Sequence record: SRR31156797_4759
DNA length: 32,789 nucleotides
Reading direction: 5' to 3' (one strand)
Of the stretch, positions 1 through 16,191 are shown in pieces. Made by a program: the position numbers and the translations under genes. Numbering within the stretch: the stretch's first letter is position 1; each line of letters begins with the position of its first letter. The notes beneath the pieces are model-generated. The model was not told where the DNA came from, did no database searches, and saw only the letters and a program-made list of their open reading frames with translations.

Positions 1-1
1 G

Positions 2-91
2 TCTAAGAACCAAATGTTGATGCAATCAGGTGCGTCAATGCTAAGTGCAACTAAGTCAATTCCACAGTTAGCAATGTCAATGCTAGGCTAA
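2..91 (+). CDS. lafA: Flagellin (lateral/LafA-like), 3' end only; truncated by window edge
   Basis: Not in the ORF track. Frame from base 2 reads SKNQMLMQSGASMLSATKSIPQLAMSMLG*, a typical flagellin C-terminal D0 helix. It lies upstream of the fliD/fliS block and is followed by a terminator. Confidence 0.88.
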   Translation, partial: SKNQMLMQSGASMLSATKSIPQLAMSMLG

Positions 92-113
92 TTGATAATT
101 AGTTTTTAATTTT

Positions 114-142
114 AAAAGCCAGCGTTTATCGCTGGTTTTTTT
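114..142 (+). terminator. Rho-independent terminator after flagellin
   Basis: aaaaGCCAGCG-tttat-CGCTGGT followed by a T run. Confidence 0.85.
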
Positions 143-219
143 GTATTTTCTTTTATTTTAGGAACTGTTTCCAATTTATGTAGGAATAATCTTTATTGAT
201 ATCTACTAATGATTTGATT

Positions 220-247
220 GAAATAAAACGATTTTATTTGCCGTTAT
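220..247 (+). promoter_or_regulatory. Possible sigma-28 promoter for the flagellin-like ORF
   Basis: GCCGTTAT (240-247) resembles the -10 consensus GCCGATAA. The -35 is imperfect (GAAA with 16 nt spacing). Confidence 0.4.
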
Positions 248-296
248 AAATTAATGAAGATGCCCTGAACTTAACTGAATATAAAAGGACACCATC

Positions 297-1019
297 ATGG
301 TTATTTCTGCACCAGTGAATAATTCAACTTATGTGACTAGTACTCATGCTGAGGTAAATAAGTTTGATTCTACTACTAACTACGTTGATCAACGAGTAAA
401 TGCGGTTGTTGAAGATGACAATCCACAATCAAGTTTGAAGATTGCGAAACGACTCTCAGAGCGTTCAGAACAACCCGTTTGGCAGCAGAAAAATCAAGAG
501 GGTGAACTTGCTTCACTGCAAAGCGCGAAACGTGTTCTAACTAATGTGGAAAATGTTGCAAATCAGCTGAATGAAGCCATTGATGTTGAAGACAACGAGA
601 AGGTATCTCAATTACGGGCTCAGCTTAAAGAATTAACAGCGCAGGTTAACAGTTCGCAATCAGATGAATCTAAGAACAAAGGCGACTCTGAAGGGGATGA
701 AGTCAAAGTTAAGTTCAACAGTAGTGAAATGTCGTCGATTGCAGAAACGTTAGCAAAAACGGATTTGACTGACAACTCAGCTCCGGAGATCAAAGAATTG
801 CTTTTGGGAGAAGGGGGCTTGATGAGCCAAATTACCCAGGTTCGTAATGAGCTGGATGCCCGGGTCCAGGAAGCTTTTACAGCAAATACAGCAGTAGATA
901 CAAGTGCCGCAATTGAAGCCAGTCAGGCTTCGAAAGAGAGCATGTTAGACGCGAGTGGCGCAAAACAACTGAACGGCACTAACACGTCTGCAGATATTAC
1001 TGTGAGTATCCTAGGCTGA
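297..1019 (+). CDS. Short, degenerate flagellin-like protein (240 aa)
   Basis: RVN..DD..LKIAKRL...KN...LQSA...L.NV.N aligns with the flagellin N-terminal helices. The last 29 aa align without gaps (12 identical) to the upstream flagellin tail. RBS aagga at 7 nt from ATG. Confidence 0.75.
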   Translation: MVISAPVNNSTYVTSTHAEVNKFDSTTNYVDQRVNAVVEDDNPQSSLKIAKRLSERSEQPVWQQKNQEGELASLQSAKRVLTNVENVANQLNEAIDVEDNEKVSQLRAQLKELTAQVNSSQSDESKNKGDSEGDEVKVKFNSSEMSSIAETLAKTDLTDNSAPEIKELLLGEGGLMSQITQVRNELDARVQEAFTANTAVDTSAAIEASQASKESMLDASGAKQLNGTNTSADITVSILG

Positions 1020-1071
1020 TTCCTACATAGGAATCAGCAGGGGTAGATGTAACGGTTTTAGTTAACCCCCT
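1015..1071 (+). other. Intergenic hairpins (11-bp perfect inverted repeat plus AGGGGG/CCCCCT stem) without U tail
   Basis: GCTGATTCCTA-ca-TAGGAATCAGC at 1015-1038; AGGGGG 1039-1044 pairs with CCCCCT 1066-1071. Confidence 0.6.
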
Positions 1072-1125
1072 ATCATATTTATAGGCAGGAATGTCGAATC
1101 GGAACTGCCGCTTTTGGAGAGAATC

Positions 1126-2460: not shown

Positions 2461-2469
2461 AGGTAAACC

Positions 2470-2862
2470 ATGTTATTAGGCAACCAACAACAAGCCGCTT
2501 ATGGCAATGTACAGGTTCAGGCGAATGCCTCTGTTTCAAACAGCTTTGAGCTTGTGTGCATGTTACATAAGCGACTGGACCAAGAACTCGATGTGATGAT
2601 TTATAGCATCGAGAATAAAGATTTTGAAAAGAAATCAGCGGCGGCTCAGAAGGCCATCGATATTCTTATCGGTTTGGATTCCGCTTTGGACTTAGATAAC
2701 CCGAACGAGTTGATTGAAAACATTCATACGCTTTACGAGCACAGTATTGCGACGGTTTTCCAAGCATCGAAGGATCTCAATCCTCAACTGCTTGTCGATT
2801 TAAAGAAGCCTCTTACTGATCTTAGCGAAGGTTGGGAAGGCGCGATGAAGCTTTTGAGTTAA
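2470..2862 (+). CDS. fliS: Flagellin export chaperone FliS (LafC)
   Basis: AY..VQ.QA..S...ELV.ML, KAIDIL.GL.SALD, LSEGWEG; follows fliD. Confidence 0.9.
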   Translation: MLLGNQQQAAYGNVQVQANASVSNSFELVCMLHKRLDQELDVMIYSIENKDFEKKSAAAQKAIDILIGLDSALDLDNPNELIENIHTLYEHSIATVFQASKDLNPQLLVDLKKPLTDLSEGWEGAMKLLS

Positions 2863-2867
2863 AAACG

Positions 2868-3155
2868 ATGAATCAAACCGAGTTGAGGAAAGTGCTGTCT
2901 TTTTACCAACGAGCTCTTGAAGAGCAAAACGTAGAAGCTATTCAAAAAAGCGTAAATCTGTTGGAAAAACATTTACCTCAGGTCGATCAATCTGCCGAGG
3001 AAAATGTTGAGGTATTAGCAAAGCTCAAACAAGTACACCTAAGAGCAGTTGAGTTCATTAAGCAGCAAAGGGATGCAGCAAAAGCAGAAATGGAAAGCAT
3101 TGGTAACAATAGGGCAAGAGATTTTGCCTACCAAAAAACGCAATTAAGTAGATAA
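2868..3155 (+). CDS. lafD: LafD / FliT-like flagellar chaperone
   Basis: Small helical protein with C-terminal ..AYQ between fliS and fliK; likely start ATG 2868. Confidence 0.7.
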   Translation: MNQTELRKVLSFYQRALEEQNVEAIQKSVNLLEKHLPQVDQSAEENVEVLAKLKQVHLRAVEFIKQQRDAAKAEMESIGNNRARDFAYQKTQLSR

Positions 3156-3157
3156 AT

Positions 3158-4144
3158 ATGATTAATGGTTTTAGCCATACAACTACTAGTGCATCGACTT
3201 TAAACGACGGTTCTGCAACGGCAGTACAGTCTGGTTTTAATAGCGGTTTATTAGGCAACAAAGAGCCATCAGAGCATTCTGCAGTAAGTTTTTCGGGATT
3301 ACTGAATTCTGATACTGAAGCTTTGCTAAGTTCGACCTCGATAGAATCTTTGGCCGTGGACGGTGAGACCGCGGCACTCGAACAACAAGAAGCAGCGCTA
3401 ACGGTGGATAACTCTCATCACCTCTTAGCTTCTACATCAAACGTATCTCATCAGTTAAACAAAGATGCAGTGACAGCTGGTACATCAGCAGTTTCAACCC
3501 TGTCGGACAGTATTGTCACTGCGGTTTCTAATGTGATGAGCACAAGTGCAACGTTGGCAACCGCTCAAGTCGCCACTACCCAGCTGGCAGTGAACAGTGT
3601 TTTGGATGGCAAGCTAATTGAGGCCACAGCGGTAAAAGAAACGGCTACTTCGGTAGATGCTTTAGTTAGCAGTAATACTCAGGTAAACCGCGGTGACGCG
3701 GGTTCGAATTTGCAGTTCAAAGCGGTGATGGATAAAACGTTATCAGCCCAAGAACTTGGTGAGCGACTCAGTTCGACTATAGCAGATAAAGTGTCGGTTC
3801 AAATCAACGCAAAAACGCCAACGGCAACCATACGATTAGACCCGCCAGATTTGGGCAAAATTGACTTAGTGGTCAAGCTGGATAACGACAAGCTCAATAT
3901 TCAGATTAATGCTTCATCAGGCGCGACGCGTGAATCTATTCAGATGACTTCTGATCGTCTGAGAGCAGAGTTGGTGGAACAAAACTTTTTACATGTCGAT
4001 GTTTCTATTTCTGGGGAGCATCAGCAAAGCTCTGACCATCATGAAATGATGGCTGAAGGAGATTTCATGGTTGCTGGTAATTCGGTAGCAACGGACTCTG
4101 ATGCAGAAGAATTTGTCGACAACAGTGAGTTAGCAAGAGCGTAA
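3158..4144 (+). CDS. fliK: Flagellar hook-length control protein FliK (LafE)
   Basis: S/T/A-rich N-terminus plus T3S4 domain ATIRLDPPDLGKIDL...DRLRAEL. Confidence 0.9.
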   Translation: MINGFSHTTTSASTLNDGSATAVQSGFNSGLLGNKEPSEHSAVSFSGLLNSDTEALLSSTSIESLAVDGETAALEQQEAALTVDNSHHLLASTSNVSHQLNKDAVTAGTSAVSTLSDSIVTAVSNVMSTSATLATAQVATTQLAVNSVLDGKLIEATAVKETATSVDALVSSNTQVNRGDAGSNLQFKAVMDKTLSAQELGERLSSTIADKVSVQINAKTPTATIRLDPPDLGKIDLVVKLDNDKLNIQINASSGATRESIQMTSDRLRAELVEQNFLHVDVSISGEHQQSSDHHEMMAEGDFMVAGNSVATDSDAEEFVDNSELARA

Positions 4145-4148
4145 TATT

Positions 4149-4616
4149 ATGAAAATTGTAATTGCAGTATTAGCATCCGTACTATTAACCGTTGGCGCCA
4201 TTATTGGTTTAAGTGTTGCTGGTATTAATATTGGAAACGTCTTTGGTGGTTCTGATTCATCCTCTCAATCGAATGTTCAAGTGCTCCAAGATGCGCCACA
4301 AAATAACAATTTGGTGTCTCCAACTGTAGAAGTCCCTCTTCATGGAATGCTAATTCCTATTAATTATACAAAGCGTCAAAGTTTATTGTTGCTCGATCTT
4401 TATTTATATACCCCTGAAGGAAATGAGGACGAGCTAAAAGCTCATATTCCTAAGATCAAAAACCAGATTTTGAAAGTGTTTAGCTTGAAACCAGCGGAGT
4501 ATTATCGTGACGATATGTTCATTCTAAATTTGCAGGATGATCTGGACTATTTATTTAAAAAGGAAAAGAAGTGGCGCGTTAAGGAAGTGTTAGTCACTAA
4601 AGCGGTATATCAGTAA
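4149..4616 (+). CDS. fliL: Flagellar basal body-associated protein FliL (LafF)
   Basis: N-terminal TM helix, HIPKIKNQIL.VFS, C-terminal VKEVLVTKAVYQ; position between fliK and fliA. Confidence 0.82.
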   Translation: MKIVIAVLASVLLTVGAIIGLSVAGINIGNVFGGSDSSSQSNVQVLQDAPQNNNLVSPTVEVPLHGMLIPINYTKRQSLLLLDLYLYTPEGNEDELKAHIPKIKNQILKVFSLKPAEYYRDDMFILNLQDDLDYLFKKEKKWRVKEVLVTKAVYQ

Positions 4617-5312
4617 ATGTTATTAGCGAATCAAGCCTATCAGAAAACAGATATGCAATCAGCAGCCGAGCGTAATGCGATAGAAGCGGCTGCTATTCAG
4701 TCTAATTTACCGTTAATCAATCGTGCCCTTAAACGATACAGAGGTGCTGTGGATCAAGATACGATGGAAGACCTCCATCAAACAGCATTAATGACATTTG
4801 TGACTGAGCTGAGAAAGTTTGACCATATCGTAAACGAAGACTTCATTAAATCTGCCACTGTTCGACTGAGAGGGGCTGTGATTGATGAGCTTCGTTCGCG
4901 AGATTACTTAAGCCGTGAAAACAGAACGCTAGCCAATAATATTAAGAAAGCAGAATCAATCTTAATGGGTAAGCTTGGTCGAACTCCAAGACAATCCGAA
5001 GTGTGTAGTGCACTGAAAATCACCGCACAGGAATATTTGGATGCAATGTCTGATCTTGTATTAAGTGATGATATTGAACTTTATGACAGCGTAGAGCATA
5101 CCGAAGAAGATAATAAAGAAGAATTAGCACTTTTTCTTCAACAAGAATTAGAAAAGCTGCCTGAAGAAATGCAGAAAGTTATGTATTTAATGTACGTAAT
5201 GGGATTGAGTACTCAGGAAACAGCACTCGCATTAGAAATAAGTGAAGTGAAAGTTCACAGACTAAAACATAAAGGTGTCGAGGTCATTAAATCTCGAGCG
5301 GAGAGAATTTAG
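4617..5312 (+). CDS. fliA: Flagellar sigma-28 factor (LafS), divergent
   Basis: RLRGAVIDELRSRDYLSR (region 2.4/3), LGRTP, C-terminal region 4 HTH; lafS position. Confidence 0.88.
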   Translation: MLLANQAYQKTDMQSAAERNAIEAAAIQSNLPLINRALKRYRGAVDQDTMEDLHQTALMTFVTELRKFDHIVNEDFIKSATVRLRGAVIDELRSRDYLSRENRTLANNIKKAESILMGKLGRTPRQSEVCSALKITAQEYLDAMSDLVLSDDIELYDSVEHTEEDNKEELALFLQQELEKLPEEMQKVMYLMYVMGLSTQETALALEISEVKVHRLKHKGVEVIKSRAERI

Positions 5313-5313
5313 A

Positions 5314-6168
5314 ATGAAGCAAATATTAGCATTTATTGGGATATTAGCGGTTATTGGGGTGTCGTTTGTTCTTCATGGGGGAAGATTGGGCGCACTGGTT
5401 AAAATATCCGAGATTGTTATTATTTTTGGTGCCTCGCTAGGCGGTTTGGTTATTTCTTGTACCATGCCTACGTTGAAACTCATGCTATCGCAAATAAAGC
5501 AATCTATCGGAAAAAGTATCTACACCAAAGAGTACTACAACGAACTACTTTCCTTAATGTTTGAACTGATCAACGTGGTAAAAATGCAGAATCTGAAAGC
5601 ATTGGATACTCACGTTGAAAATCCAGAAGCGAGTAGCATCTTTACTAAATATCCTAAGATCATGGCTGACAGCATCACACTTAATTTTATTGTCGACTCT
5701 TTCCGTCAGGTGATCAGTTCTAAGATTTCAGCACACGAACTCGAGGCGGCACTGGAAGAAGAAATTGAAGTGTTGATGGAAGAGTACGAAAAGCCATCAA
5801 CCAAGTTACATGCGACAGCTGAAGCTATGCCTGGTATCGGTATTTTGGCTGCGGTTATGGGCATCATTTTGACCATGCAAAACCTGGACGCTGATGTGAC
5901 GGTTATCGGCCAAAGTATTGCTGGAGCACTGGTGGGTACCTTTACCGGTATTTTTGGTTGTTACTGTATGTTTGGTCCGTTGTCGGCATCAATGCATGAT
6001 ATTGCGGAAGAGCAAGTTGCTCCACTGCACTGCATTCGCTCAATCATCACAGGTTACTTGCAAAACTTGTCTCCGCACATGTGTGTTAATGCAGGCCGTA
6101 AGCATATTGAAAGTCATGTTAAGCCGAGCTTTACCGACTTAGAGCAATCGTTAGAAAGCTTAAGGTAG
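5314..6168 (+). CDS. motA: Flagellar stator protein MotA (LafT)
   Basis: HVENPEASSIFTKYP, AMPGIGILAAVMG, GALVGTFTG, GRK...KPSF; start ATG 5314. Confidence 0.93.
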   Translation: MKQILAFIGILAVIGVSFVLHGGRLGALVKISEIVIIFGASLGGLVISCTMPTLKLMLSQIKQSIGKSIYTKEYYNELLSLMFELINVVKMQNLKALDTHVENPEASSIFTKYPKIMADSITLNFIVDSFRQVISSKISAHELEAALEEEIEVLMEEYEKPSTKLHATAEAMPGIGILAAVMGIILTMQNLDADVTVIGQSIAGALVGTFTGIFGCYCMFGPLSASMHDIAEEQVAPLHCIRSIITGYLQNLSPHMCVNAGRKHIESHVKPSFTDLEQSLESLR

Positions 6169-6173
6169 AAATT

Positions 6174-7097
6174 ATGAGTACTGCTGGCGTAACAATTATA
6201 AAGAAAAAGAAGAACAAAGGTACTGAACTGACTCACGGTGGTTGGAAAGTGGCAATGGCCGACTTGATGATCTCATTGATGTGTCTTTTTCTTATTTTAT
6301 GGCTACTTTCGATGATGGATTCTGAAGATAGCAAAGATTTAGTTGAATACTTTCAAACCGGTCAATTACAAGCTGACGGGTTAGGAAATTCCATCAGTCC
6401 ATTAACGCTTCAGGAAGTGGCAACCAGTCACTATGACGCGGATTTGCACCGTATAAATGATACATCTCTCATCGAAGGTGAAGTGGATAGCCAGCAAGAA
6501 CTGGAAGTATTTAGCCGTTTGATACAGCAGGAACTTGAAGAGATTCAAGGCATGGGCAGTGTTCAGGTGACGATTACGCCTCAAGGTTTGAAGCTTATGA
6601 TCAGTGACTCAGAGCAAGGACAAATGTTCTACCGTGGTGGTGCTAACATGACGCCTTTCTATCAAGATTTGTTGCTTCATCTAGCGCCTATATTTAAACG
6701 TGTGACCAATGCCATGGTCATTACCGGTCATACCGATGCGAGCCGCTTTGTGGGTTCTAAAACAACTAACTGGGAGTTGTCGGCTAATCGCGCAAATGTG
6801 GCCAGATATTTCTTAGCCCAAGGCGGTGTCCCAAGTGATCAGTTCTTCCAGATTTCCGGGATGGCGGATACCGCTCCGCTAGTACCTGAAGATCCAAAGA
6901 GTTCGACAAACCGACGAATTGAAATTTTTGTGTTAACCAGTTCTGCACAAAAGCAGCTCAGTGAAGTGTATAAAACACTGCCTAACGTTGAATCAACGGG
7001 TAAAGAAGCAGATAAACAAGTAATGGATACTATTGGACGTCAGGAAAGAGAAGCCGCGCAGGCTGCTCGAGACAATCAGTTACCGACTTCCTATTAG
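6174..7097 (+). CDS. motB: Flagellar stator protein MotB (LafU)
   Basis: HGGWKVAMAD TM motif; OmpA-like domain ITGHTD, NWELSANRA, NRRIEI. Confidence 0.93.
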   Translation: MSTAGVTIIKKKKNKGTELTHGGWKVAMADLMISLMCLFLILWLLSMMDSEDSKDLVEYFQTGQLQADGLGNSISPLTLQEVATSHYDADLHRINDTSLIEGEVDSQQELEVFSRLIQQELEEIQGMGSVQVTITPQGLKLMISDSEQGQMFYRGGANMTPFYQDLLLHLAPIFKRVTNAMVITGHTDASRFVGSKTTNWELSANRANVARYFLAQGGVPSDQFFQISGMADTAPLVPEDPKSSTNRRIEIFVLTSSAQKQLSEVYKTLPNVESTGKEADKQVMDTIGRQEREAAQAARDNQLPTSY

Positions 7098-7106
7098 GAA
7101 AACATC

Positions 7107-7403
7107 TTGTTAAGAAAACTTTGTAAGGTCAGCACCGCAAACCAGCGTCAATTAAGGCGAAGGTTAGCATGGCTGACCTTAATTAATTACTTGATGATTA
7201 TTATTTATGCTGTTGCTACCCATGTTGAGTCAAGCTTGGTGGTGATGATCAGTATTTGCGTTTTTGTGTACAACTACTTGCTAGTAAGACTCGTAACCAG
7301 TATCCCGAAACATATTTTTATGACGAGAAGTCATCGTTATTTAACGGTTCCGCTAATCGGTAGTGTTTGCATTGTTTGCATCCTTGTCGTAGCAAGCTTT
7401 TAA
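7107..7403 (+). CDS. Hypothetical small membrane protein (about 3 TM helices)
   Basis: TTG start 8 nt after AGGA; basic N-terminus and three hydrophobic stretches; fills the gap between motB and maf. Confidence 0.6.
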   Translation: MLRKLCKVSTANQRQLRRRLAWLTLINYLMIIIYAVATHVESSLVVMISICVFVYNYLLVRLVTSIPKHIFMTRSHRYLTVPLIGSVCIVCILVVASF

Positions 7404-7467
7404 CTTATTTTATGCCTTATTCTTTGCTGCTTCGCATTAAACGACTTATATTTTTAGAAGAGATTTT

Positions 7468-8793
7468 ATGACTACTGAATTTTATAAAAACAACCTGGCG
7501 ATAATATCAATGCGATGGCCAGAATTGGCACAAGCTATTGAACAGCACGATATTTCAACACTTCCTTTTGAAGTCGTTGAGAATCAATCTATATCATTGT
7601 CAGTTGATGGTATTCAGTTGAGCAGCACTTATGACCCAATTGAAGAAGCTTTGGCTTATCGGAAAACTACATCTGGTGATGTTTACCATATATGGGGCTT
7701 TGGTATTGGTAATGTTCCAGAAGTCATTCTGCATGATCAAGCAGTTAAAGAAATCTCCATTTATATCTATAACCTAGATGTGTTAAAGCTAGTTTTAACT
7801 TTAATGCCTAAACCATGGCTGGCTGACAAAAAAATCAAACTTATTTATATGCATCAGAATATGGATAAGTTAAGTGATTATTTAACCAGAATTTTTGTTT
7901 CTGGAACCATTATTATTAATGCCGATAAGTTTATTTCTAAGAAAAATAACCCTGAGTTACATTGGTTAGTTCATCGACTAGAACATCGATTGTTCATTAT
8001 GCATGTCAACCGAAAACAATCATTGAGAGACGATGAGTACTTAAGTATCGAGCAAGAAAATATGCCGATACTTAAGAAACTTAAGCCATTTGAAAACTAT
8101 CTCAAGAAAAACCGAATTAAAGAGGCCATTTGTATTGGCGCGGGGCCTTCTTTGGATGCTCATATAGATGAACTGAAAGAGATTTATAAGCAAAAGAATC
8201 GCCCAACTTTTATTGCACCGACAACGGCATGTAACGCGTTACTTAAACATGACATTATTCCTGATTTAATGATGATTATTGATGTCGATATCCCTGCTAA
8301 GAGTATTCCTTTTGCGAAGTTAGGTAACACACCACTAATTTTTGCTAGTCGGGTAAAAAAAGAGATTATTTCTCAGTGGCAGGGTGAGAAGTATTACGCC
8401 AACTTGGTTGAAGAAGGCTATAACCGTCTGCAGCAACAATTACCAACCGCTTATCGCTTGTTCTGCTTTGGTTCAGTTATTCATAGTATTACGCACGTCG
8501 CCTTGCTGGCGGGAGCAGATAAAGTGTCATTCATCGGTTGTGACTTTGGCTTTCCTGGCGGGGTTCAGCATGCTTCTACCGACGATTCTAATGCTGCGAT
8601 AGTGAATGATATTGATATGAGTGAGTTGGTTGAGAATGGCTATGGCGAAATGATTTTGTCGTCACCTACATATCGTATGTTCTGCTCTGGTATTGAAACC
8701 ATCATTACAGGATGTCCAAATGTTGAGTTTTACAATATGAGCCGTTTAGGCGCAAAAATTATTGGAACTAAGTATCTTGATGAGGCGAAATAG
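7468..8793 (+). CDS. maf: Motility-associated factor (Maf, DUF115/MptE-like) flagellin nonulosonate glycosyltransferase
   Basis: LSSTYDP.EEA, GFGIG, CIGAGPSL, IIPD, GSV.H, GA..V.FIGCDFGF, NMS.LGAKI.GT motifs; adjacent to flagellar and Leg genes. Confidence 0.82.
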   Translation: MTTEFYKNNLAIISMRWPELAQAIEQHDISTLPFEVVENQSISLSVDGIQLSSTYDPIEEALAYRKTTSGDVYHIWGFGIGNVPEVILHDQAVKEISIYIYNLDVLKLVLTLMPKPWLADKKIKLIYMHQNMDKLSDYLTRIFVSGTIIINADKFISKKNNPELHWLVHRLEHRLFIMHVNRKQSLRDDEYLSIEQENMPILKKLKPFENYLKKNRIKEAICIGAGPSLDAHIDELKEIYKQKNRPTFIAPTTACNALLKHDIIPDLMMIIDVDIPAKSIPFAKLGNTPLIFASRVKKEIISQWQGEKYYANLVEEGYNRLQQQLPTAYRLFCFGSVIHSITHVALLAGADKVSFIGCDFGFPGGVQHASTDDSNAAIVNDIDMSELVENGYGEMILSSPTYRMFCSGIETIITGCPNVEFYNMSRLGAKIIGTKYLDEAK

Positions 8794-9069
8794 ATGACCA
8801 GAAATGATTTCGACAACAGTTTAAACGTATCGGCTGAATGTTATTACAATGGCGACCATTTTACCGGTGATTATCTCATGAACGGTTGTATCAGGTGGCT
8901 GTCATTCTCACCGATGACTAAAGAGCAGATACAATTTGTCAATAATCAGGTTGCTATGATTAATACTATCCGCAAATCAGAAAACTACACCAGATTGGCT
9001 GATTTTCTTAGTTACGAACTGCTATTGGATTTTCCAAATTTGGATAGTTTGATTGGTAAAGCAGAATAG
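8794..9069 (+). CDS. Hypothetical helical protein abutting maf
   Basis: ATG directly follows the maf TAG in frame; ENYTRLADFLSYELL motif. Confidence 0.65.
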   Translation: MTRNDFDNSLNVSAECYYNGDHFTGDYLMNGCIRWLSFSPMTKEQIQFVNNQVAMINTIRKSENYTRLADFLSYELLLDFPNLDSLIGKAE

Positions 9070-9094
9070 TTCACAGAGTTTCGGAGTGTAGGAA

Positions 9095-10276
9095 ATGTTA
9101 AGTTTAATCGGTCGAGAACAGGCTTTATTCAATCATGATATTGGTGATCATGAAGATGAATTGAAGCGTATTGTTTCTCAGTCCAAATTTTTGGTTCTTG
9201 GCGGAGCTGGTTCTATAGGTCAGTCTGTGACTAAAGAAATATTCAAACGCCAACCGCTTAAACTGCACGTTGTCGATATAAGTGAAAATAATTTAGTGGA
9301 ATTGGTTCGTGATATTCGTAGCTCATTCGGTTATATCAATGGTGATTTTCAAACCTTTGCACTTGATATCGGTTCATTAGAGTATGATGCCTTTATCAAG
9401 GCAGACGGTCAGTTTGACTATGTGCTTAATCTATCGGCCTTAAAGCATGTTCGTAGTGAGAAAGACCCTTTCACTTTAATGCGCATGATTGATGTGAATA
9501 TCTTCAATACGGATAAAACACTCCAACAGTCGATCGATGCTGGCACCAAAAAGTATTTCTGCGTATCAACCGATAAGGCAGCAAACCCTGTCAATATGAT
9601 GGGTGCTTCAAAGCGCATTATGGAGATGTTCCTTATGCGTAGGAGTAAACAAATGACGATCTCCACAGCCCGTTTTGCCAATGTGGCTTTTTCTGATGGT
9701 TCTCTGCTGCACGGGTTTAATCAACGTCTTCAAAAACGTCAGCCTATAGTTGCTCCAAACGATATCAAACGATACTTCGTAACACCGCAAGAGTCAGGTG
9801 AGTTGTGTTTGATGTCTTGTATCTTTGGTGAAAATCGCGATGTTTTTTTCCCAAAATTGAATAAAGCACTTCATCTGATCTCATTTGCTGATGTTGCCGT
9901 AAAGTATTTAGAGCAATTGGGTTATGAGCCTTATTTATGCAGCAGCGAAGATGAAGCGAGGCAATTGGCAAAAACGTTGCCTGAGCAAGGGAAATGGCCA
10001 TGCTTGTTTACATCAAGTGATACCACGGGAGAAAAAGACTTTGAGGAGTTCTTTACTGATAAAGAACTTCTGGATATGTCTCGTTTTCAAAGTTTAGGCG
10101 TCATAAAGAATGAAGCTTGGTTTGATGCGGAACGATTATCTTTGTTTGAGCAAACGATCAATGACATGAAAGATAAGCGGCAATGGACTAAACAGCAGAT
10201 TGTTGAACTGTTTTTCACCATGATTCCAGATTTTGGTCATAAAGAAACAGGCAAATACCTAGACGGTAAAATGTAG
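9095..10276 (+). CDS. legB: NDP-GlcNAc 4,6-dehydratase (LegB/LgaA type)
   Basis: GGAGSIG, LSALKHVRSEKDP, STDKAANPVNMMGASKR, RFANVAFSDGSL. Confidence 0.9.
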   Translation: MLSLIGREQALFNHDIGDHEDELKRIVSQSKFLVLGGAGSIGQSVTKEIFKRQPLKLHVVDISENNLVELVRDIRSSFGYINGDFQTFALDIGSLEYDAFIKADGQFDYVLNLSALKHVRSEKDPFTLMRMIDVNIFNTDKTLQQSIDAGTKKYFCVSTDKAANPVNMMGASKRIMEMFLMRRSKQMTISTARFANVAFSDGSLLHGFNQRLQKRQPIVAPNDIKRYFVTPQESGELCLMSCIFGENRDVFFPKLNKALHLISFADVAVKYLEQLGYEPYLCSSEDEARQLAKTLPEQGKWPCLFTSSDTTGEKDFEEFFTDKELLDMSRFQSLGVIKNEAWFDAERLSLFEQTINDMKDKRQWTKQQIVELFFTMIPDFGHKETGKYLDGKM

Positions 10277-10293
10277 TTGAGGGGTGTAAAGTC

Positions 10294-11445
10294 ATGAAAG
10301 CATCATCCATTGTTGAGTTGGTTCGTGATACTTATCAGACACGAGAGTTCATTCCTCTGCATGCACCTTCGTTTTCTGGCAATGAGAAATCTTATGTCAT
10401 GGAAACCCTTGATAGTACTTATGTATCCAGTGTCGGTAAGTTTGTTGATCAGTTTGAACTACAAGTAGAGAGCTATACAAACTGTGCCAAAGCGGTTGCC
10501 ACCGTAAATGGTTCTGCAGCGTTGCACGCAGCTTTACATATGGTCGGAGTCGGGCGTTGTGATTTAGTTATCACTCAGGCACTGACTTTTGTTGCAACTT
10601 GCAATGCGATCTACCATATGGGGGCAGAGCCGATATTTGTCGATGTGTCTCCAATAAGCTTAGGTTTGTGCCCCAAAGCGGTTGAGATCTATTTATTAGA
10701 ATATGCGGAGCTAAGAGAAGAAGGTTGTTTCCACAAAACGACAGGGCAACGTATTAAAGCGGTTGTCCCTATGCATACCTTTGGTCACCCAACGGAAATG
10801 GATGAACTCATCGCAGTTTGTTTAGCTTGGAAACTATCATTGGTTGAAGATGCCGCTGAAAGTTTAGGTTCTTTTTATAAAGGAAAACACACAGGTACGT
10901 TAGGTGACTTCGGTGCAATCAGCTTTAATGGCAACAAGATCATCACAACTGGCGGCGGTGGCATGGTGCTTTGTAATACTAAGGAGTCAGGACTACGTGT
11001 TAAACATGTGACGACCACGGCGAAAGTTCCTCACCCTTATGAGTTTTTCCATGATGAACCAGGCTTTAACTATCGTATGCCGAATATTAATGCAGCGCTA
11101 GGTTGTGGGCAAATGGAAGTACTTGAGTCTTATCTTTCTCAGAAAAGACGGTTGGCACATCTGTATCAAGCATTTTTCAATGGTACAGATGTTAAGTTTG
11201 TTTCTGAGCCTGATTATGCGCAATCCAACTATTGGCTCAATGCGATCATTTGTCCTGATGCTGACGTCCGTGACAGCATTTTAAGTGAGACTAATGCTGC
11301 TGGTGTAATGACTCGACCTATATGGAAGTTAATGCACCGTTTGCCTATGTTTAAAAATGTACTTTGTGGTGATTTAAGTTACTCCGAATTTATTGAAGCC
11401 CATGTGGTCAATTTACCGAGTTCACCAATAGAAATTAGCCATTAA
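10294..11445 (+). CDS. legC: LegC-family PLP-dependent aminotransferase
   Basis: FIPLHAP, EDAAESLGS, SFNGNKIITTGGGG, NYRMPNINAALG. Confidence 0.92.
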   Translation: MKASSIVELVRDTYQTREFIPLHAPSFSGNEKSYVMETLDSTYVSSVGKFVDQFELQVESYTNCAKAVATVNGSAALHAALHMVGVGRCDLVITQALTFVATCNAIYHMGAEPIFVDVSPISLGLCPKAVEIYLLEYAELREEGCFHKTTGQRIKAVVPMHTFGHPTEMDELIAVCLAWKLSLVEDAAESLGSFYKGKHTGTLGDFGAISFNGNKIITTGGGGMVLCNTKESGLRVKHVTTTAKVPHPYEFFHDEPGFNYRMPNINAALGCGQMEVLESYLSQKRRLAHLYQAFFNGTDVKFVSEPDYAQSNYWLNAIICPDADVRDSILSETNAAGVMTRPIWKLMHRLPMFKNVLCGDLSYSEFIEAHVVNLPSSPIEISH

Positions 11446-11461
11446 AATTGGATATGGGATA

Positions 11462-12637
11462 GTGATGTATAATCAAACGCGAGTCGCCGTTTTTACTGGC
11501 ACAAGAGCAGAGTATGGTCTGCTCTTTTGGCTTTTAAAAGATATTCAAGACGATCCAAATCTCCAGCTCCAATTATTAGTTTCAGGTATGCACCTTTCTC
11601 CTGAATTTGGCGAAACCTATAAGCAAATAGAGGAAGATGGTTTCAATATCGACGAGAAAGTTGAAATGCTTCTTTCTTCCGATTCCGCAGTTGGTACAGC
11701 CAAAAGTATCGGTCTTGGAGTGCTAGGGTTTGCTGATGCGTTAGCGAGATTAAAGCCAAATATCATCGTGATACTGGGTGACCGTTTTGAAGCGTTAGCA
11801 GCCGCACAAACTGCGATGATCTTACGCATTCCTATTTTTCACCTCCATGGAGGGGAGATCACCGAAGGTGCTTATGATGATGCGATACGTCATGCCATTA
11901 CCAAATTGAGCTATTTACACGGAACATCAACAGAGCAATACCGCCAACGTGTTATTCAATTAGGTGAGCACCCTTCGAGAGTTAAAAATATTGGAGCCAT
12001 TGGTCTCGACCATCTTGCTCGCAGTGAACTTATGTCTGTTGGTGAACTAGCGGAGTCATTAGACTTTAAATTAACTCAACCTTACTTTTTGGTGACTTAT
12101 CATCCCGTAACTTTGGGGAAAGAGCCTTCCGAAAAAAGCTTCCAAGCTTTGCTTGATGCACTTGATGAGTACCCTGAGCATCAAGTCATCCTGACTTATC
12201 CAAATGCTGATGACGGTGGTCGACGCATTGTTCCTATGCTAGAGCAGTATGCTGCTCAGCGTGCAAAAAGGGTCATTGCTATTTCGTCATTGGGGCAGGT
12301 TCGATATTTAAGCGCGGTGAAACACGCAAATGTAGTGATAGGAAACTCTTCCAGTGGAATCATTGAAGTTCCCGCTTTTGATGTCCCAACAGTAAATATT
12401 GGTTTACGTCAAAAAGGTCGACTCGCGGCAAAGAGTGTCATTCATGCTGAAGCTGAACAAAGCGCAATTTCTAGTGCTATTCAAGTAGCGTTGAGCCGCT
12501 CTTATCAAGTACAAGGTGAAGCCATAGTCAACCCATATGGGCGGGGTGACAGTGGCTCTCAAGTGATTGAAATGATTAAGTCCATAGACTTAAATGAATG
12601 TAAAACGTTTTATGATGTGATAACAAGAGACGAATAA
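11462..12637 (+). CDS. neuC: Hydrolysing NDP-sugar 2-epimerase (NeuC/LegG)
   Basis: TGTRAEYGL, LGDRFE, HGGE, GNSSSGIIE; start GTG 11462 or ATG 11465. Confidence 0.92.
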   Translation: MMYNQTRVAVFTGTRAEYGLLFWLLKDIQDDPNLQLQLLVSGMHLSPEFGETYKQIEEDGFNIDEKVEMLLSSDSAVGTAKSIGLGVLGFADALARLKPNIIVILGDRFEALAAAQTAMILRIPIFHLHGGEITEGAYDDAIRHAITKLSYLHGTSTEQYRQRVIQLGEHPSRVKNIGAIGLDHLARSELMSVGELAESLDFKLTQPYFLVTYHPVTLGKEPSEKSFQALLDALDEYPEHQVILTYPNADDGGRRIVPMLEQYAAQRAKRVIAISSLGQVRYLSAVKHANVVIGNSSSGIIEVPAFDVPTVNIGLRQKGRLAAKSVIHAEAEQSAISSAIQVALSRSYQVQGEAIVNPYGRGDSGSQVIEMIKSIDLNECKTFYDVITRDE

Positions 12638-13710
12638 TGACCTTAATCATCGCTGAAGCTGGCGTTAATCATAATGGGAAAGAAGAGCTGGCATTTCGAC
12701 TTGTTGATGCAGCTTATAAAGCTGGTGCTGACATTGTTAAATTTCAGACATTCAAAGCAAAGAACTTAGTAACCGAATATGCGCCTCAAGCCGATTATCA
12801 AGTGGTTAACACTCAAAAGAAGCAATCACAGTTTGAGATGCTGTCTCGTTTAGAGCTTTCTTATGAAGTACACCATAAATTAGTGGCGTATTGTGAAGAG
12901 TTAGGAATAGAGTTTCTTTCTACAGCCTTTGATTCAGAAAGCTTAGATTTTTTAGTTAATGATTTGGGTTTAACACGTTTAAAACTGCCTTCCGGTGAGC
13001 TAACCAATGCGCCTTTAGTGCTTGAGCATGCGAGAACTGGCTGTGATTTGATTGTATCTACTGGTATGGCGACACTCTCTGAAATTGAAATGGCACTCGG
13101 TGTGATTGCATTTGGCTACATCACTTCTGAAGATCGTGAGCCTTCTTTGACCGCATTTCAGGAGGCTTATTCTTCAACAGAAGGTCAACAAGCAATCAAA
13201 GAAAAAGTCACTCTTTTACATTGTACTACGGAATATCCTGCCCCTCTTAATGAAATCAACTTAAGGGCAATGGACACCCTAGCTAAGGCTTTTGATTTAC
13301 CTGCTGGTTATTCAGATCATAGTGAGGGAGTGACCATCCCTGTTGCTGCGGTTGCTCGTGGCGCTGTGGTAATTGAAAAACACTTCACCTTAGATAAGTT
13401 AATGGAAGGCCCCGACCATAAAGCGTCTCTCGACCCTGTTGAGCTCTCAGCTATGGTGAGTGCTATTCGCCAAGTCGAAGCCGCTTTAGGCTCATCGGTG
13501 AAAACACCAACAGTGGCAGAAGTGAAAAATAAGCAAGTTGCCCGAAAAAGTTTAGTGGCAGCAAAGCAAATTAAGCGAGGTGAAACCCTAACAGAGAGTC
13601 ACCTTGTCACTAAACGTCCAGGATCAGGTAAGTCACCATACTGCTATTGGGAAATGCTAGGGAAAACTGCTCAGAAGGATTACTCAGCGGGTGATTTAAT
13701 TGATGAGTAA
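12637..13710 (+). CDS. neuB: Nonulosonic acid synthase (NeuB/LegI)
   Basis: IIAEAGVNHNG, LHCTTEYP, GYSDHS, IEKHFTLD, GPDHKASL, C-terminal SAF/AFP-like domain. Confidence 0.95.
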   Translation: MTLIIAEAGVNHNGKEELAFRLVDAAYKAGADIVKFQTFKAKNLVTEYAPQADYQVVNTQKKQSQFEMLSRLELSYEVHHKLVAYCEELGIEFLSTAFDSESLDFLVNDLGLTRLKLPSGELTNAPLVLEHARTGCDLIVSTGMATLSEIEMALGVIAFGYITSEDREPSLTAFQEAYSSTEGQQAIKEKVTLLHCTTEYPAPLNEINLRAMDTLAKAFDLPAGYSDHSEGVTIPVAAVARGAVVIEKHFTLDKLMEGPDHKASLDPVELSAMVSAIRQVEAALGSSVKTPTVAEVKNKQVARKSLVAAKQIKRGETLTESHLVTKRPGSGKSPYCYWEMLGKTAQKDYSAGDLIDE

Positions 13711-14353
13711 CTCACAGCTTTTGCCTCTCGTCTTTATTGGTGGAGGGGGGCACGCTTCTGTTTTAGCCGATATCTTGTTAGCACAAGGCAGAGAGATTCT
13801 TGCTGTTGTCAGTCCTGACGACATTACCCACAGAACTATTTTTAGGAATATTCCTCGCCTTAAAGAGGACAAGGATGCATTGAGGTTCAAGCCTAATGAC
13901 GTTTTACTTGTCAACGGTATTGGAATGATGCCGAACTCGACTTTAAAGAGGTCGACTAATGAATATTTTGAATCACAGGGTTATCGATTTGAAACTGTGA
14001 TTTCTGACAGTGCTGTTGTATCTCCTTTTGCCACGATAGCAGAAGGCGCGCAGATATTTCCTAAGTCCACTGTCAATACGGGTGCTTGTATAGGAAAACA
14101 CACCATTATTAATAGCTGTGCACTAGTCGAACATGATTGTGAAGTAGGTGCATACAACCATATTGCTCCCAATGCGGTTCTTTGTGGCCAAGTGAAAACT
14201 GAGGAAAATGTTTTCGTTGGAGCGAGTGCAACAATTATTCAAAATTTGCAGATTTCTCATTCATCAGTCGTGGGTGCTGGTGCAACCGTTACTGAATCAC
14301 TGATTGCAAAATCTATTGTGTATTCAACGAGGGGGACTGCAAAGACGTATTGA
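13703..14353 (+). CDS. neuD: NeuD/PglD-family hexapeptide-repeat acyltransferase (LegH/LgaE position)
   Basis: IGGGGHASV, VEHDC.VG..NHIAP; start overlaps neuB stop. Confidence 0.88.
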   Translation: MSNSQLLPLVFIGGGGHASVLADILLAQGREILAVVSPDDITHRTIFRNIPRLKEDKDALRFKPNDVLLVNGIGMMPNSTLKRSTNEYFESQGYRFETVISDSAVVSPFATIAEGAQIFPKSTVNTGACIGKHTIINSCALVEHDCEVGAYNHIAPNAVLCGQVKTEENVFVGASATIIQNLQISHSSVVGAGATVTESLIAKSIVYSTRGTAKTY

Positions 14354-14371
14354 GTGAAATAAAGGTGTGAG

Positions 14372-15436
14372 ATGAGTCATAGCTGGCAAAAAACGCTAGT
14401 TTCTGAGCATAGTACAATTAAACAAGCATTAGAAATTATTAATACTGAAGCCATGAGAGTGGCAGTTGCTGTGAGTGCAGAAAAGAAGCTTGTGGGCATG
14501 ATCAGCGATGGCGATATTCGCCGAGGATTACTGCGAGATCTTTCACTTAACGATTCAGTCTCTCAAGTCATGAACCGTCAACCTATCAGTGCTAAGTTTG
14601 GTACGACTAAAGAGCAACTGATTGCTCTCATGAAGAAACGACAAATCCTTTCTGTGCCGCTAGTTGATGATGATAGTCGTGTGGTTGGACTTGAAACCTT
14701 ACATGGTGCCTTAAGTAAACAACAATACAATAACCCTGTATTCCTAATGGCTGGTGGTTTTGGCACACGTCTGCGCCCATTAACGGATAAATGCCCTAAG
14801 CCGATGTTAAAAATTGGTGGTCAACCGATTTTAGAAACCGTCATCAAGAGCTTTATTAAAGCGGGTTTTAACAATTTCTATATTTCTACCCATTACATGC
14901 CTGAGCTTATTCATCGCCACTTTGGTGATGGTTCTAAGCTTGGTGTCTCAATTCAATATGTACATGAAGAGCAGCCTCTTGGTACCGGGGGGGCGTTAGG
15001 ACTTTTACCGAAAGACTTACCTGAAGACCTACCTTTAATCATGATGAATAGTGACCTTCTGACCCAGGTTGATTTCCAAAGCTTATTGAAATTTCATTTA
15101 AGCAACGATGCAGATGCAACCATGTGCGTTAGAGAGTATGACTATCAAATACCTTACGGTGTCATAAACGGTGAGGGGAGTCGTATTACCAGTATGGTTG
15201 AAAAACCAGTACAACGATTTTTTGTTAACGCAGGTATTTATGTTGTTTCGCCTCGAGTTATTCGTTCTGTTCAAACAAACCAAAGAATCGATATGCCGAC
15301 GCTTTTGGAACAACATATGGCTGAACGAGGCCGAGTCTTAATGTTCCCTATTCATGAATATTGGTTGGATATCGGCCGTATGGACGATTTTAATCGTGCA
15401 CAAACTGATATTCATAGCTTAGGTATGTGTTCATGA
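14372..15436 (+). CDS. ptmE: CBS-domain nucleotidyltransferase (PtmE/LgaF type)
   Basis: N-terminal CBS pair (SDGDIRRGLL), MAGGFGTRLRPLT..PKPML, YWLDIGR. Confidence 0.88.
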   Translation: MSHSWQKTLVSEHSTIKQALEIINTEAMRVAVAVSAEKKLVGMISDGDIRRGLLRDLSLNDSVSQVMNRQPISAKFGTTKEQLIALMKKRQILSVPLVDDDSRVVGLETLHGALSKQQYNNPVFLMAGGFGTRLRPLTDKCPKPMLKIGGQPILETVIKSFIKAGFNNFYISTHYMPELIHRHFGDGSKLGVSIQYVHEEQPLGTGGALGLLPKDLPEDLPLIMMNSDLLTQVDFQSLLKFHLSNDADATMCVREYDYQIPYGVINGEGSRITSMVEKPVQRFFVNAGIYVVSPRVIRSVQTNQRIDMPTLLEQHMAERGRVLMFPIHEYWLDIGRMDDFNRAQTDIHSLGMCS

Positions 15437-16125
15437 TTAGTGACAAACAAGTTTTAGCGTTGATCCCAGCAAGAGGTGGCAGTAAGCGCCTGCCTCGTAA
15501 AAATGTTCGACTGTTGAATGGAAAGCCCCTGATTGGTTGGTCTATCGATGCGGCTAAGAAAAGCAAGTACATTGATGATGTGTTTGTCAGTACAGACGAC
15601 CAAGAAATTGCGGATGTTGCTTGGGAGTATGGTATTGATATTCCTGAACTACGTTGTGCAGATCTAGCCTCTGATTCTGCTACTACAGAGAGTGTGCTTG
15701 TTGATGTACTGGATCGCTATGCTTCAAAGGTTGATATTGTTGTACTACTCCAGCCAACATCGCCTCTTCGTTCAAATGTTCATATTGATGAAGCTCTGGA
15801 ACTGTTTATGAGCAGGAGTGCACACTCAGTCGTATCTGTGACTCCGTGTGAGCATTCACCTCTATGGAGCAATACTTTGCCTGAAGATGGCTCGATGGGG
15901 AGTTTTATACGACCAGAAGCTTTACGACGCTCACAAGACCTCCCGAGCTATTACCGTTTGAATGGTGCGATATACATATTTGATGTGAAGCATTTCATGC
16001 AAATTAAACGCATTCAGTACACGTCGAAGTCGTTCTCATATGTTATGGATAACCATGTATCGTTGGATATTGATCATCAAATCGATTTTGATATGGCGGA
16101 GTTTCTCATGCACAAAGCCAACTAG
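15433..16125 (+). CDS. neuA: Acylneuraminate cytidylyltransferase (NeuA/LegF)
   Basis: IPARGGSKRLPRKN, LLQPTSPLR, NGAIY, DID; ATGA overlap with ptmE stop (alternative start 15427). Confidence 0.93.
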   Translation: MISDKQVLALIPARGGSKRLPRKNVRLLNGKPLIGWSIDAAKKSKYIDDVFVSTDDQEIADVAWEYGIDIPELRCADLASDSATTESVLVDVLDRYASKVDIVVLLQPTSPLRSNVHIDEALELFMSRSAHSVVSVTPCEHSPLWSNTLPEDGSMGSFIRPEALRRSQDLPSYYRLNGAIYIFDVKHFMQIKRIQYTSKSFSYVMDNHVSLDIDHQIDFDMAEFLMHKAN

Positions 16126-16146
16126 GTTATTTAATTATTGGGATGT

Positions 16147-16175
16147 AAAAAAGGCTCTGCAAATGCAGAACCTTT
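16147..16175 (-). terminator. Terminator between convergent neuA and GGDEF-like gene
   Basis: Minus strand AAAGGTTCTGCA-tt-TGCAGAGCCTTTTTT; may also act on the plus strand. Confidence 0.7.
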
Positions 16176-16191
16176 CCTTTCTTGGCGCCAA

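Follow-up and report, generated by a model that had tools for sequence, protein, structure and literature searches.

Putative flagellin-sialylation module joined to the 3' half of a lateral-type flagellar locus in a Vibrio

The DNA considered here is a stretch of 32,789 nucleotides (nt) from sequence record SRR31156797_4759, and this whole stretch is referred to as the window. Positions 1-16125 hold, according to the list of open reading frames (ORFs), a single unbroken series of genes on the + strand. These genes form the 3' half of the lateral-type flagellar (laf) locus of a Vibrio, to the end of which a probable flagellin-sialylation module is fused, namely a gene for a Maf-type transferase, a small ORF that is probably glfM and seven genes of a legionaminic acid (Leg)-type sugar pathway (Table 1). 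This module likely serves to attach a sugar of the Leg type to the lateral flagellin by way of the Maf and GlfM proteins.

Gene content of the locus

Family scans covered 38 ORFs, that is all listed ORFs that are not nested within a longer annotated ORF. All 19 named genes are intact frames of usual length and, with the exception of the motB-maf spacer, the gaps between neighbours from fliD to legF range from -38 to +25 nt. The gene content and coordinates reported in an earlier note, made from the letters of the sequence, were borne out by the ORF list and by the Pfam and NCBIfam family collections, but four of its labels turned out weaker than stated. The flagellin amounts to the last 29 codons of the gene, the resemblance of the next ORF to flagellin is weak, lafD is named by its position only and the membrane ORF of 98 amino acids (aa) is doubtful as a gene.

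Several features of the sequence support a lateral-type flagellar operon, as had been proposed. Table 4 of the Plesiomonas study (PMC4481668), which lists the lafA to lafU set with V. parahaemolyticus and Aeromonas references, shows the same order of genes, LafA-B-C-X-E-F-S-T-U, the FliT-like member being matched by position only. The FliD protein is short (448 aa) and along its whole length shares 35% identity with the FliD encoded downstream of lafA-maf in L010, a metagenome locus that also carries a maf gene. In addition, a FliA-like sigma factor is encoded within the operon itself, and the stator is of the MotA1 type, for which the PomA model scores 29.3 bits vs 318.6 bits for MotA1. Stators of the MotA/MotB type are proton-driven and those of the PomA/PomB type, which serve the polar flagellum of Vibrio, sodium-driven, by family. 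The top NCBIfam model for motB is 'lateral flagellar LafU' at 185 bits, below its cut-off; for fliA it is FliA_WhiG at 97 bits, also below its cut-off (189.6). The 107-aa ORF in the FliT/LafD position had no family match in the Pfam and NCBIfam scans.

At the 5' edge of the window, 16 of the 28 aligned residues of the flagellin end are identical to the C-terminus of the lateral flagellin of L010 (E 1e-9). The ORF that follows lacks the counterpart of the first ~35 flagellin residues, i.e. the N-terminal D0 segment, and it matched neither a Pfam nor an NCBIfam family even at E<=10, flagellin models included. The Protein Atlas gave leads only, consisting of unnamed clusters, one of them with Flagellin_N in 11% of its members, and a FliS co-chaperone cluster (0.91). 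This ORF might represent a paralogue of flagellin, either degenerate or regulatory. Upstream of it, no -35 element was found at consensus spacing to the speculative element GCCGTTAT.

The host is a Vibrio to which no named species is close, as judged from TrpA. TrpA (24113-24919) has its best species-named relatives in V. aestuarianus (82% identity), V. anguillarum (81%) and V. qinghaiensis (80%), and the range over named Vibrio species is 82-74%, in agreement with the vibrio host that had been suggested. Relatives without a species name reach 90-100%. Among the 120 TrpA matches listed, all those that name an organism name Vibrio or 'Vibrionales'. An exact look-up in a collection of 15 billion proteins found 0 of 10 window proteins, and a search for a close relative of MetE in a class sample (400 genomes) and an order sample (41) gave a best identity of 58%.

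Table 1. Features of the window, with the contig junctions recovered from RNA libraries and the remaining genes at the end.
Feature	Position	Strand	Remarks
3' end of lateral-type flagellin gene, last 29 codons	2..91	+	remainder upstream of window
Intrinsic-terminator-like hairpin and T-run, 3' of flagellin gene	114..140	+	11 pairs, 5 G-C
GCCGTTAT, sigma-28 -10-like element (speculative)	240..247	+	50 nt 5' of ORF 297-1019
240-aa ORF, weakly flagellin-like	297..1019	+	colinear with flagellin, 23% identity, E 0.023
fliD, lafB-type filament cap, 448 aa	1114..2460	+	FliD_C 7.4e-43, FliD_N 8.5e-10
fliS, flagellin chaperone	2470..2862	+	PF02561, 1.2e-18
107-aa ORF, FliT/LafD position	2832..3155	+	named from position alone
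fliK, hook-length control	3158..4144	+	Flg_hook, 6.9e-17
fliL	4149..4616	+	PF03748, 25.4 bits, barely above cut-off 24.6
fliA-type sigma factor, lafS position	4617..5312	+	Sigma70 regions 2, 3, 4
motA, lafT position, MotA1-type stator	5275..6168	+	TIGR03818, 318.6 bits vs cut-off 303.8
motB, lafU position	6174..7097	+	MotB_plug and OmpA domains
98-aa hydrophobic ORF, TTG start, doubtful gene	7107..7403	+	two or three hydrophobic stretches
maf, Maf-2-type putative flagellin nonulosonic-acid transferase, 441 aa, without TPR domain	7468..8793	+	PF01973, 2.4e-29
glfM candidate, 91-aa four-helix putative adaptor for Maf	8794..9069	+	starts at the base right after maf stop
legB-type NDP-GlcNAc 4,6-dehydratase	9095..10276	+	Polysacc_synt_2, 2.5e-42
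legC, aminotransferase	10294..11445	+	TIGR04181 LegC family, 526 bits vs cut-off 420
legG, hydrolysing 2-epimerase, NeuC type	11462..12637	+	TIGR03568, 482.5 bits vs cut-off 235.9
legI, nonulosonate synthase, NeuB type	12637..13710	+	TIGR03569, 493.7 bits vs cut-off 399.65
legH, N-acetyltransferase, NeuD/PglD type	13700..14353	+	TIGR03570, 197.4 bits vs cut-off 160.8
ptmE-like CBS-domain sugar-1-phosphate nucleotidyltransferase	14372..15436	+	CBS and NTP_transferase domains
legF, CMP-nonulosonate synthetase	15427..16125	+	CTP_transf_3, 3.3e-26
RNA-library contig junction, 98-aa ORF/maf	7302-7641
RNA-library contig junction, maf/glfM	8302-8909		3 differences in 608
RNA-library contig junction, legB/legC	10179-10546
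RNA-library contig junction, legH/ptmE	14149-14536		1 difference in 388
Remainder of window: metE, type II secretion system pilotin, yciI, thioesterase, yciB, SDF transporter, trpABCDGE, PHP protein, YciO-like protein
NDP, nucleoside diphosphate; GlcNAc, N-acetylglucosamine; CMP, cytidine monophosphate; TPR, tetratricopeptide repeat.

Maf, its small partner and the sugar pathway

The protein encoded behind motB is a genuine Maf, as had been claimed from the sequence. Its MptE-like/DUF115 domain matches PF01973 at 102.8 bits vs a cut-off of 34.6 over residues 198-363, and the AlphaFold model, with a predicted local distance difference test (pLDDT) score of 86.7, ends right behind the catalytic domain region. 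The best fold match in the PDB is 5mu5, the Magnetospirillum Maf (E 2.4e-17, template modelling scores 0.46/0.34), followed by archaeal HPPK (MptE), and the sequence search of the PDB returned archaeal HPPK only (1.4e-5). Among 5.8 billion proteins, 35 full-length relatives were found at 44-57% identity and none above 57%. All 16 matches of at least 44% that carry an organism name come from Vibrio or Enterovibrio, and the V. parahaemolyticus Maf clusters (163 and 58 members) are 44-46% identical to the window protein. A scan of genome contigs yielded one distant metagenome-assembled genome (26% identical), and that of a plasmid collection one record, from Paenibacillus (27.7%). The putative function of this protein is to transfer a CMP-activated nonulosonic acid (NulO) onto Ser or Thr residues of flagellin.

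Two marks of the Maf-2 type are found at this locus. The C-terminal TPR flagellin-binding domain is absent, PF01973 being the sole match, and a small partner is encoded in cis beside maf, in the window as well as in all six relatives available for comparison. The latter are metagenome loci with a Maf 38-55% identical to that of the window and with DNA 3' of maf; in 6/6 an ORF of 90-109 aa directly abuts the maf stop. A profile built from these small proteins gave 25 matches at E<=1e-3 among 1.84 billion representatives. Lengths of 82-106 aa were found for 22 of these matches, and one match is annotated as a 'hypothetical protein' of Photobacterium galatheae. A word-index search with the 91-aa protein gave one match, a 98% twin. 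Three more Maf relatives and three small-protein members lie on contigs of equal size (2450, 16419 and 39836 nt), which suggests the same pairing of maf and small ORF on these contigs.

In the 28 aligned sequences of the small protein, Asp70 is invariant and is the only such residue apart from Met1; it sits within a LADxLEYEL-type motif. The predicted structure (pLDDT 90.6) has four helices, at residues 3-18, 22-37, 43-61 and 65-75, and Asp70 falls in helix 4. The available text on GlfM describes a protein of 89 aa that folds as a four-helix bundle, is encoded beside maf-2 and depends on Asp77 of its last helix for binding Maf-2 (bioRxiv 10.1101/2023.12.03.569772). Since the four-helix bundle, the invariant Asp of helix 4 and the adjacency to maf match this published protein, the 91-aa ORF, which the earlier note had left as an unrecognised small ORF, is probably GlfM, the adaptor required by Maf-2-type transferases. 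The fold search of the PDB with the model found nothing at E<=0.001 and generic helical bundles only. A Pfam match to DUF5342 (E 3e-4, below cut-off) occurs in the window protein and its twin only, i.e. in two of eight members, and was taken as chance.

The predicted Maf-GlfM complex supports binding of the 91-aa protein to Maf. It scored 0.77 (runs 0.77, 0.74 and 0.84), the best of three controls reaching 0.00. The mark set for this test is one that 51 of 78 solved complexes attain, vs 2 of 108 mismatched pairs. Contact agreement between runs was at least 66% and the partner pLDDT at least 76. Asp70 makes the contacts with the lowest predicted error, and its partners in them are Maf residues 53-55, which fall in a part of the Maf alignment with no or almost no variation.

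The location of the pair varies among relatives. In L010 the order is lafA-maf-small ORF-fliD. In another metagenome relative (L009:1-12850), the pair is bordered by a divergent sugar-phosphate nucleotidyltransferase gene and by flhA, and flgA, fliG and fliF lie farther on. Given the placement behind lafA in the former and before flhA in the latter, which makes a third placement, the maf-glfM pair moves about within flagellar loci.

The seven genes that follow would encode a pathway of the Leg type, for which the discriminating family models decide and which the earlier note had named. LegC scores above the cut-off of its family model, the 2-epimerase has as its best solved relative PDB 5zlr/5xvs, 'GDP/UDP-N,N'-diacetylbacillosamine 2-epimerase (hydrolyzing)' (2.6e-127), and the synthase is of the NeuB type. 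LegB matches PDB 3pvz over its full length (763 bits), which we take to be the Aliivibrio fischeri enzyme, the search output naming no organism; the PseB and FnlA models are far below their cut-offs for this protein. The pseudaminic acid (Pse) pathway was rejected, as PseB (69.6 bits vs 407.75), PseC (190.5 vs 423.5), PseI (258.4 vs 340.25) and PseF (178.7 vs 205.7) all remain below cut-off, and the NCBIfam models of PseG and PseH had no match among the sugar genes. These models split Leg-type from Pse-type enzymes, but not LegI from NeuB, LegF from NeuA, stereochemical variants or acyl groups.

Table 5 of the Plesiomonas study (PMC4481668) lists PtmE (352 aa) with the same size and at the same place as the ptmE-like gene. 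The whole order from dehydratase to cytidylyltransferase is that of the same table reversed, minus PtmF, PtmA and GlmU. The earlier description of the system as self-contained is too strong, as PtmF, PtmA and GlmU are absent and the other flagellar genes lie outside the window. The pathway would need to be fed by housekeeping enzymes, by analogy with the proposal on glmM and glmU made for V. parahaemolyticus in the available text of a preprint (bioRxiv 10.1101/2025.06.27.661923).

The relatives of different window proteins reach different levels of identity. While LegB has its full-length match to a solved structure at 763 bits, relatives of TrpA reach 90-100% identity vs 57% for the best Maf. 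A Maf relative of 54% identity and a TrpA relative of 90% lie on contigs that both measure 49308 nt and may be one and the same. Judging from these sequences, Maf may be a fast-swapping allele within the lineage.

On the other side of the Leg module, a gene on the - strand (16192-17547) is convergent with its 3' end. The encoded protein of 451 aa is laid out as an N-terminal signal or transmembrane segment, a periplasmic-looking domain, a second transmembrane segment and a degenerate GGDEF-like C-terminus with NGSQDEL in place of the GG(D/E)EF motif. The Pfam GGDEF match has an E of 0.038, and the nearest Protein Atlas clusters are GGDEF proteins (0.93-0.95). This sensor may be a regulator related to cyclic di-GMP that adjoins a surface-motility locus.

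Proposed function, transcription and rival explanations

The gene content can be arranged into a four-step scheme. LegB, LegC, LegH, LegG, LegI and LegF, together with the PtmE-like feeder, would produce a cytoplasmic CMP-activated NulO of the legionaminic acid type. The TPR-less Maf-2-type Maf would bind GlfM, which would bridge it to the lateral flagellin, and Maf would then move the sugar to Ser or Thr residues of the exposed D1 surface prior to FliS binding and type III export. The glycosylated flagellin would polymerise beneath the FliD cap, and MotA/MotB-type stators, presumed to be proton-driven, would rotate the filament. Glycosylation may be needed for filament assembly, by analogy with V. 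alginolyticus and Plesiomonas. We infer that the lateral flagellin is the acceptor, that the exact sugar is of the Leg type, that the module is co-transcribed with fliD-motB and that a polar flagellar system is present in addition.

Several points weigh against this scheme. Concerning the acceptor, the flagellin in the window consists of 29 codons and the putative acceptor Ser/Thr sites would lie outside. Concerning the adaptor, the complex test was also passed by 7 of 44 neighbouring genes drawn blindly, and the link to S. oneidensis GlfM is one of described features, not of direct alignment. Moreover, the window protein has a Ser (S73) where the family consensus has Glu three residues past the Asp, and Tyr-Tyr (Y17-Y18) where many members have Phe-Arg (F/Y-R); in the available text on GlfM, substitutions of F24, R25 and E80, which are conserved in the published alignment, were not crippling for function (bioRxiv 10.1101/2023.12.03.569772). 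Concerning the sugar, the feeder enzymes PtmF, PtmA and GlmU for GDP-GlcNAc, found in Plesiomonas/V. fischeri-type clusters, are absent from the window. Finally, the 370-nt motB-maf spacer of lower GC content could hold its own promoter, and the contigs recovered from RNA libraries may be contaminating DNA, a contig of two genes being no proof of one transcript.

The spacer just mentioned bears on the alternative that has the best chance of being right, although the odds are still against it: maf-glfM-leg may be transcribed and regulated separately rather than form the tail of the fliD-motB operon. The spacer (7098-7467) would shrink to 9 and 64 nt if the 98-aa ORF were real; this sole ORF has a TTG start and matched neither a Pfam nor an NCBIfam family, and no relatives of it were found. 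The GC content of the region has its minimum here (0.358 in 7001-8000), and maf and glfM stand at 0.37-0.38 vs 0.43-0.44 for motA and motB. The spacer looks like a seam that joins the maf-glfM-leg block to the laf operon, and maf-glfM lies elsewhere in relatives, behind lafA in L010 and before flhA in L009. Against a separate unit, no terminator-like site follows motB and no promoter motif was found in the spacer, both in weak scans.

The terminator scan returned 13 sites in the window vs 13.1 +/- 3.7 in shuffles. Two of the sites in 1-16200 lie between genes, that at 114-140 and a weak one at 16156-16169, 3' of the last gene. There is thus no intergenic terminator-like site in 141-16155, which agrees, within the limits of a crude scan, with the previous statement that no strong terminator separates fliD from neuA, here called legF. 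For promoters, motif scans used the consensus sequences of sigma-28, sigma-54 and sigma-70. The pattern GCCGWTAW had 8 matches in the window vs 2.9 expected and is well placed at 240-247 only. The full sigma-28 pattern occurred 17 times vs 9.4 expected, with none in the intergenic spacers of the cluster; the sigma-54 pattern occurred 175 times vs 159 expected, with no convincing site, and the sigma-70 scan gave 16 vs 40 expected. In the motB-maf spacer none of the three motif types exceeded chance, in scans that are weak and poorly suited to sigma-54 or LafK sites. These scans are uninformative, and promoters cannot be stated either way.

Four gene junctions (Table 1) are spanned by contigs that share 97-99.7% identity with the window and come from two seawater RNA-library runs of a single study. 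Bins with little or no cover in some runs, such as 7801-8400 in X2, carry no information. Near-identical strains carry the same four junctions, and the contigs hint at transcription of the cluster.

A bolder extension of the scheme is that the supply of the sugar is built into the lateral flagellar hierarchy by read-through from fliD-motB into maf-glfM-legBCGIH-ptmE-legF, with flagellin-Maf-GlfM possibly forming a hypervariable cassette in addition. This is a speculative proposal that we would not yet favour. If read-through is true, the transferase, the adaptor and CMP-Leg would be made alongside the lateral sigma factor, just ahead of flagellin. The swapping of a flagellin-Maf-GlfM cassette among near-identical Vibrio strains is suggested by the level of the TrpA relatives (90-100%) set against that of the best Maf (57%).

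As to the identity of the sugar, the pathway could be of the Leg type and yet lead to a product other than di-N-acetyllegionaminic acid (Leg5Ac7Ac), for instance 4-epi- or 8-epi-Leg, an acinetaminic-type sugar or another N-acyl form, in which case the expected mass shift of +316 Da would be wrong. The family models leave room for this, as they separate Leg-type from Pse-type enzymes and not stereochemical variants or acyl groups. P. shigelloides strains vary between Leg-, Neu- and Pse-type flagellar gene sets, according to one of two flag-locus surveys (PMC6993521, PMC7526173, available texts), and the Plesiomonas glycan is termed a Leg derivative (PMC4481668). Such a product is nevertheless unlikely, as extra modifying genes (amidotransferase, methyltransferase, further epimerase) were not found between glfM and legF, and the gene order is that of LegB-C-G-I-H-PtmE-...-LegF in Table 5 of the latter paper, reversed.

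It is more improbable still that the seven genes mainly supply NulO for lipopolysaccharide (LPS) or capsule and merely adjoin the flagellar operon, with Maf sharing the pool or using another donor. Loci of the V. fischeri, V. parahaemolyticus O2 and V. vulnificus types would be the models, and the full-length match of LegB to 3pvz, presumably of A. fischeri origin, fits with them. Maf (<=57%) is also far more diverged than LegB, so that separate histories are possible, and the V. parahaemolyticus Leg pathway that feeds Maf2 lies in an LPS island and also decorates O2 LPS, according to the available text (bioRxiv 10.1101/2025.06.27.661923). However, the module begins 25 nt 3' of glfM on the same strand, and it is flanked by flagellar genes on one side and by the GGDEF-like sensor gene and metE on the other. 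The reported absence of wzx, wzy and conventional glycosyltransferase genes also held up, the scan of 38 window ORFs having matched no such family and no export gene family.

That the cluster is silent or decaying and makes no flagellum is very hard to believe: ORF 297-1019 looks degenerate and only part of the locus is visible, but 19/19 named genes are intact and of usual length and near-identical contigs occur in RNA libraries.

Glycosylation of the lateral flagellin by Maf and GlfM, the reading preferred here, would make the locus useful in several respects. With genes for acceptor, chaperone, transferase and adaptor and a Leg pathway of its own, all in ~16 kb, it would be a compact natural cassette that could serve for reconstituting the specificity of Maf-2/GlfM for Leg vs Pse donors and for the glyco-engineering of flagellin. 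The locus would also be suited to asking whether the sugar is made under the same regulation as surface-induced flagella.

Relation to known systems

The earlier note held that Vibrio nonulosonate genes are normally discussed in LPS or capsule loci. This is out of date, two preprints of 2025-2026 tying Maf to lateral flagella of Vibrio in their available texts. Sialylation of the lateral flagellin in Vibrio is thus newly described, with donor-sugar genes that lie elsewhere or are not discussed in these texts. In V. parahaemolyticus, 'Molassodon' strains and 26% of 'Typical' strains have maf2-glfM immediately 3' of lafA, and mutants of lafA, maf2-glfM and legI are mutual phenocopies, which is genetic evidence that maf2-glfM and a Leg pathway act on the lateral flagella (bioRxiv 10.1101/2025.06.27.661923, available text). 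The likeness to the window lies in the lateral locus, in a Maf that lacks TPR and has a small GlfM gene behind it and in Leg as the proposed donor, and the arrangement of L010 is the one published for V. parahaemolyticus maf2-glfM. In contrast, the six Leg genes of V. parahaemolyticus are in an LPS island and are shared with O-antigen, while the window has seven Leg genes behind motB and no LPS genes nearby.

In V. alginolyticus 138-2, Maf is required for filaments and five Ser residues in D1 of LafA are modified with pseudaminic acid (bioRxiv 10.64898/2026.09.01.748753, available text). Here too Maf is encoded within the lateral locus of a Vibrio, but the sugar is different and maf lies right behind lafA; GlfM and linked sugar genes are not mentioned in that text.

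Shewanella oneidensis shares with the window a TPR-less Maf-2 and a cis-encoded four-helix adaptor of ~89 aa whose last helix holds an Asp, essential in S. oneidensis, as described in the available text (bioRxiv 10.1101/2023.12.03.569772), SO_3260 being compared by description only. It differs by its polar flagellum, its bacterial family, its Pse sugar and an additional Maf-1 that bears TPR. According to the same text, flagellar loci of Shewanella and of Gram-positive bacteria combine Maf-2, GlfM and Pse or Leg genes, and the Maf-2 of S. baltica is linked to a putative Leg cluster.

Plesiomonas shigelloides has a Leg derivative on its lateral flagellin and Leg on both flagella, as given in the available text (PMC4481668). 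The lafA to lafU set and its order as well as the LegB-C-G-I-H-PtmE...LegF order are alike. Unlike in the window, the Leg genes lie between two polar flagellar regions and include PtmF, PtmA and GlmU, and the lateral cluster has a 349-aa 'Maf-5' between flgL and lafA. Enterobacterial flag-2 loci carry glycosylation cargo in 341/592 cases (PMC6993521, PMC7526173, available texts); they resemble the window in having their own flagellin-modification genes, but these encode ordinary GT-family glycosyltransferases and methylases rather than a nonulosonate pathway with Maf and GlfM.

In the available texts of this literature, no laf operon of a Vibrio was found in which Leg genes are contiguous; the supplements of the ecospecies and GlfM preprints and of the flag-locus surveys may show some. 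The locus adds no new mechanism, each part being of a known kind and the arrangement alone being unusual. A system of this kind is already known in Vibrio, and what is different here is the placement of maf-glfM and of the whole Leg pathway behind motB.

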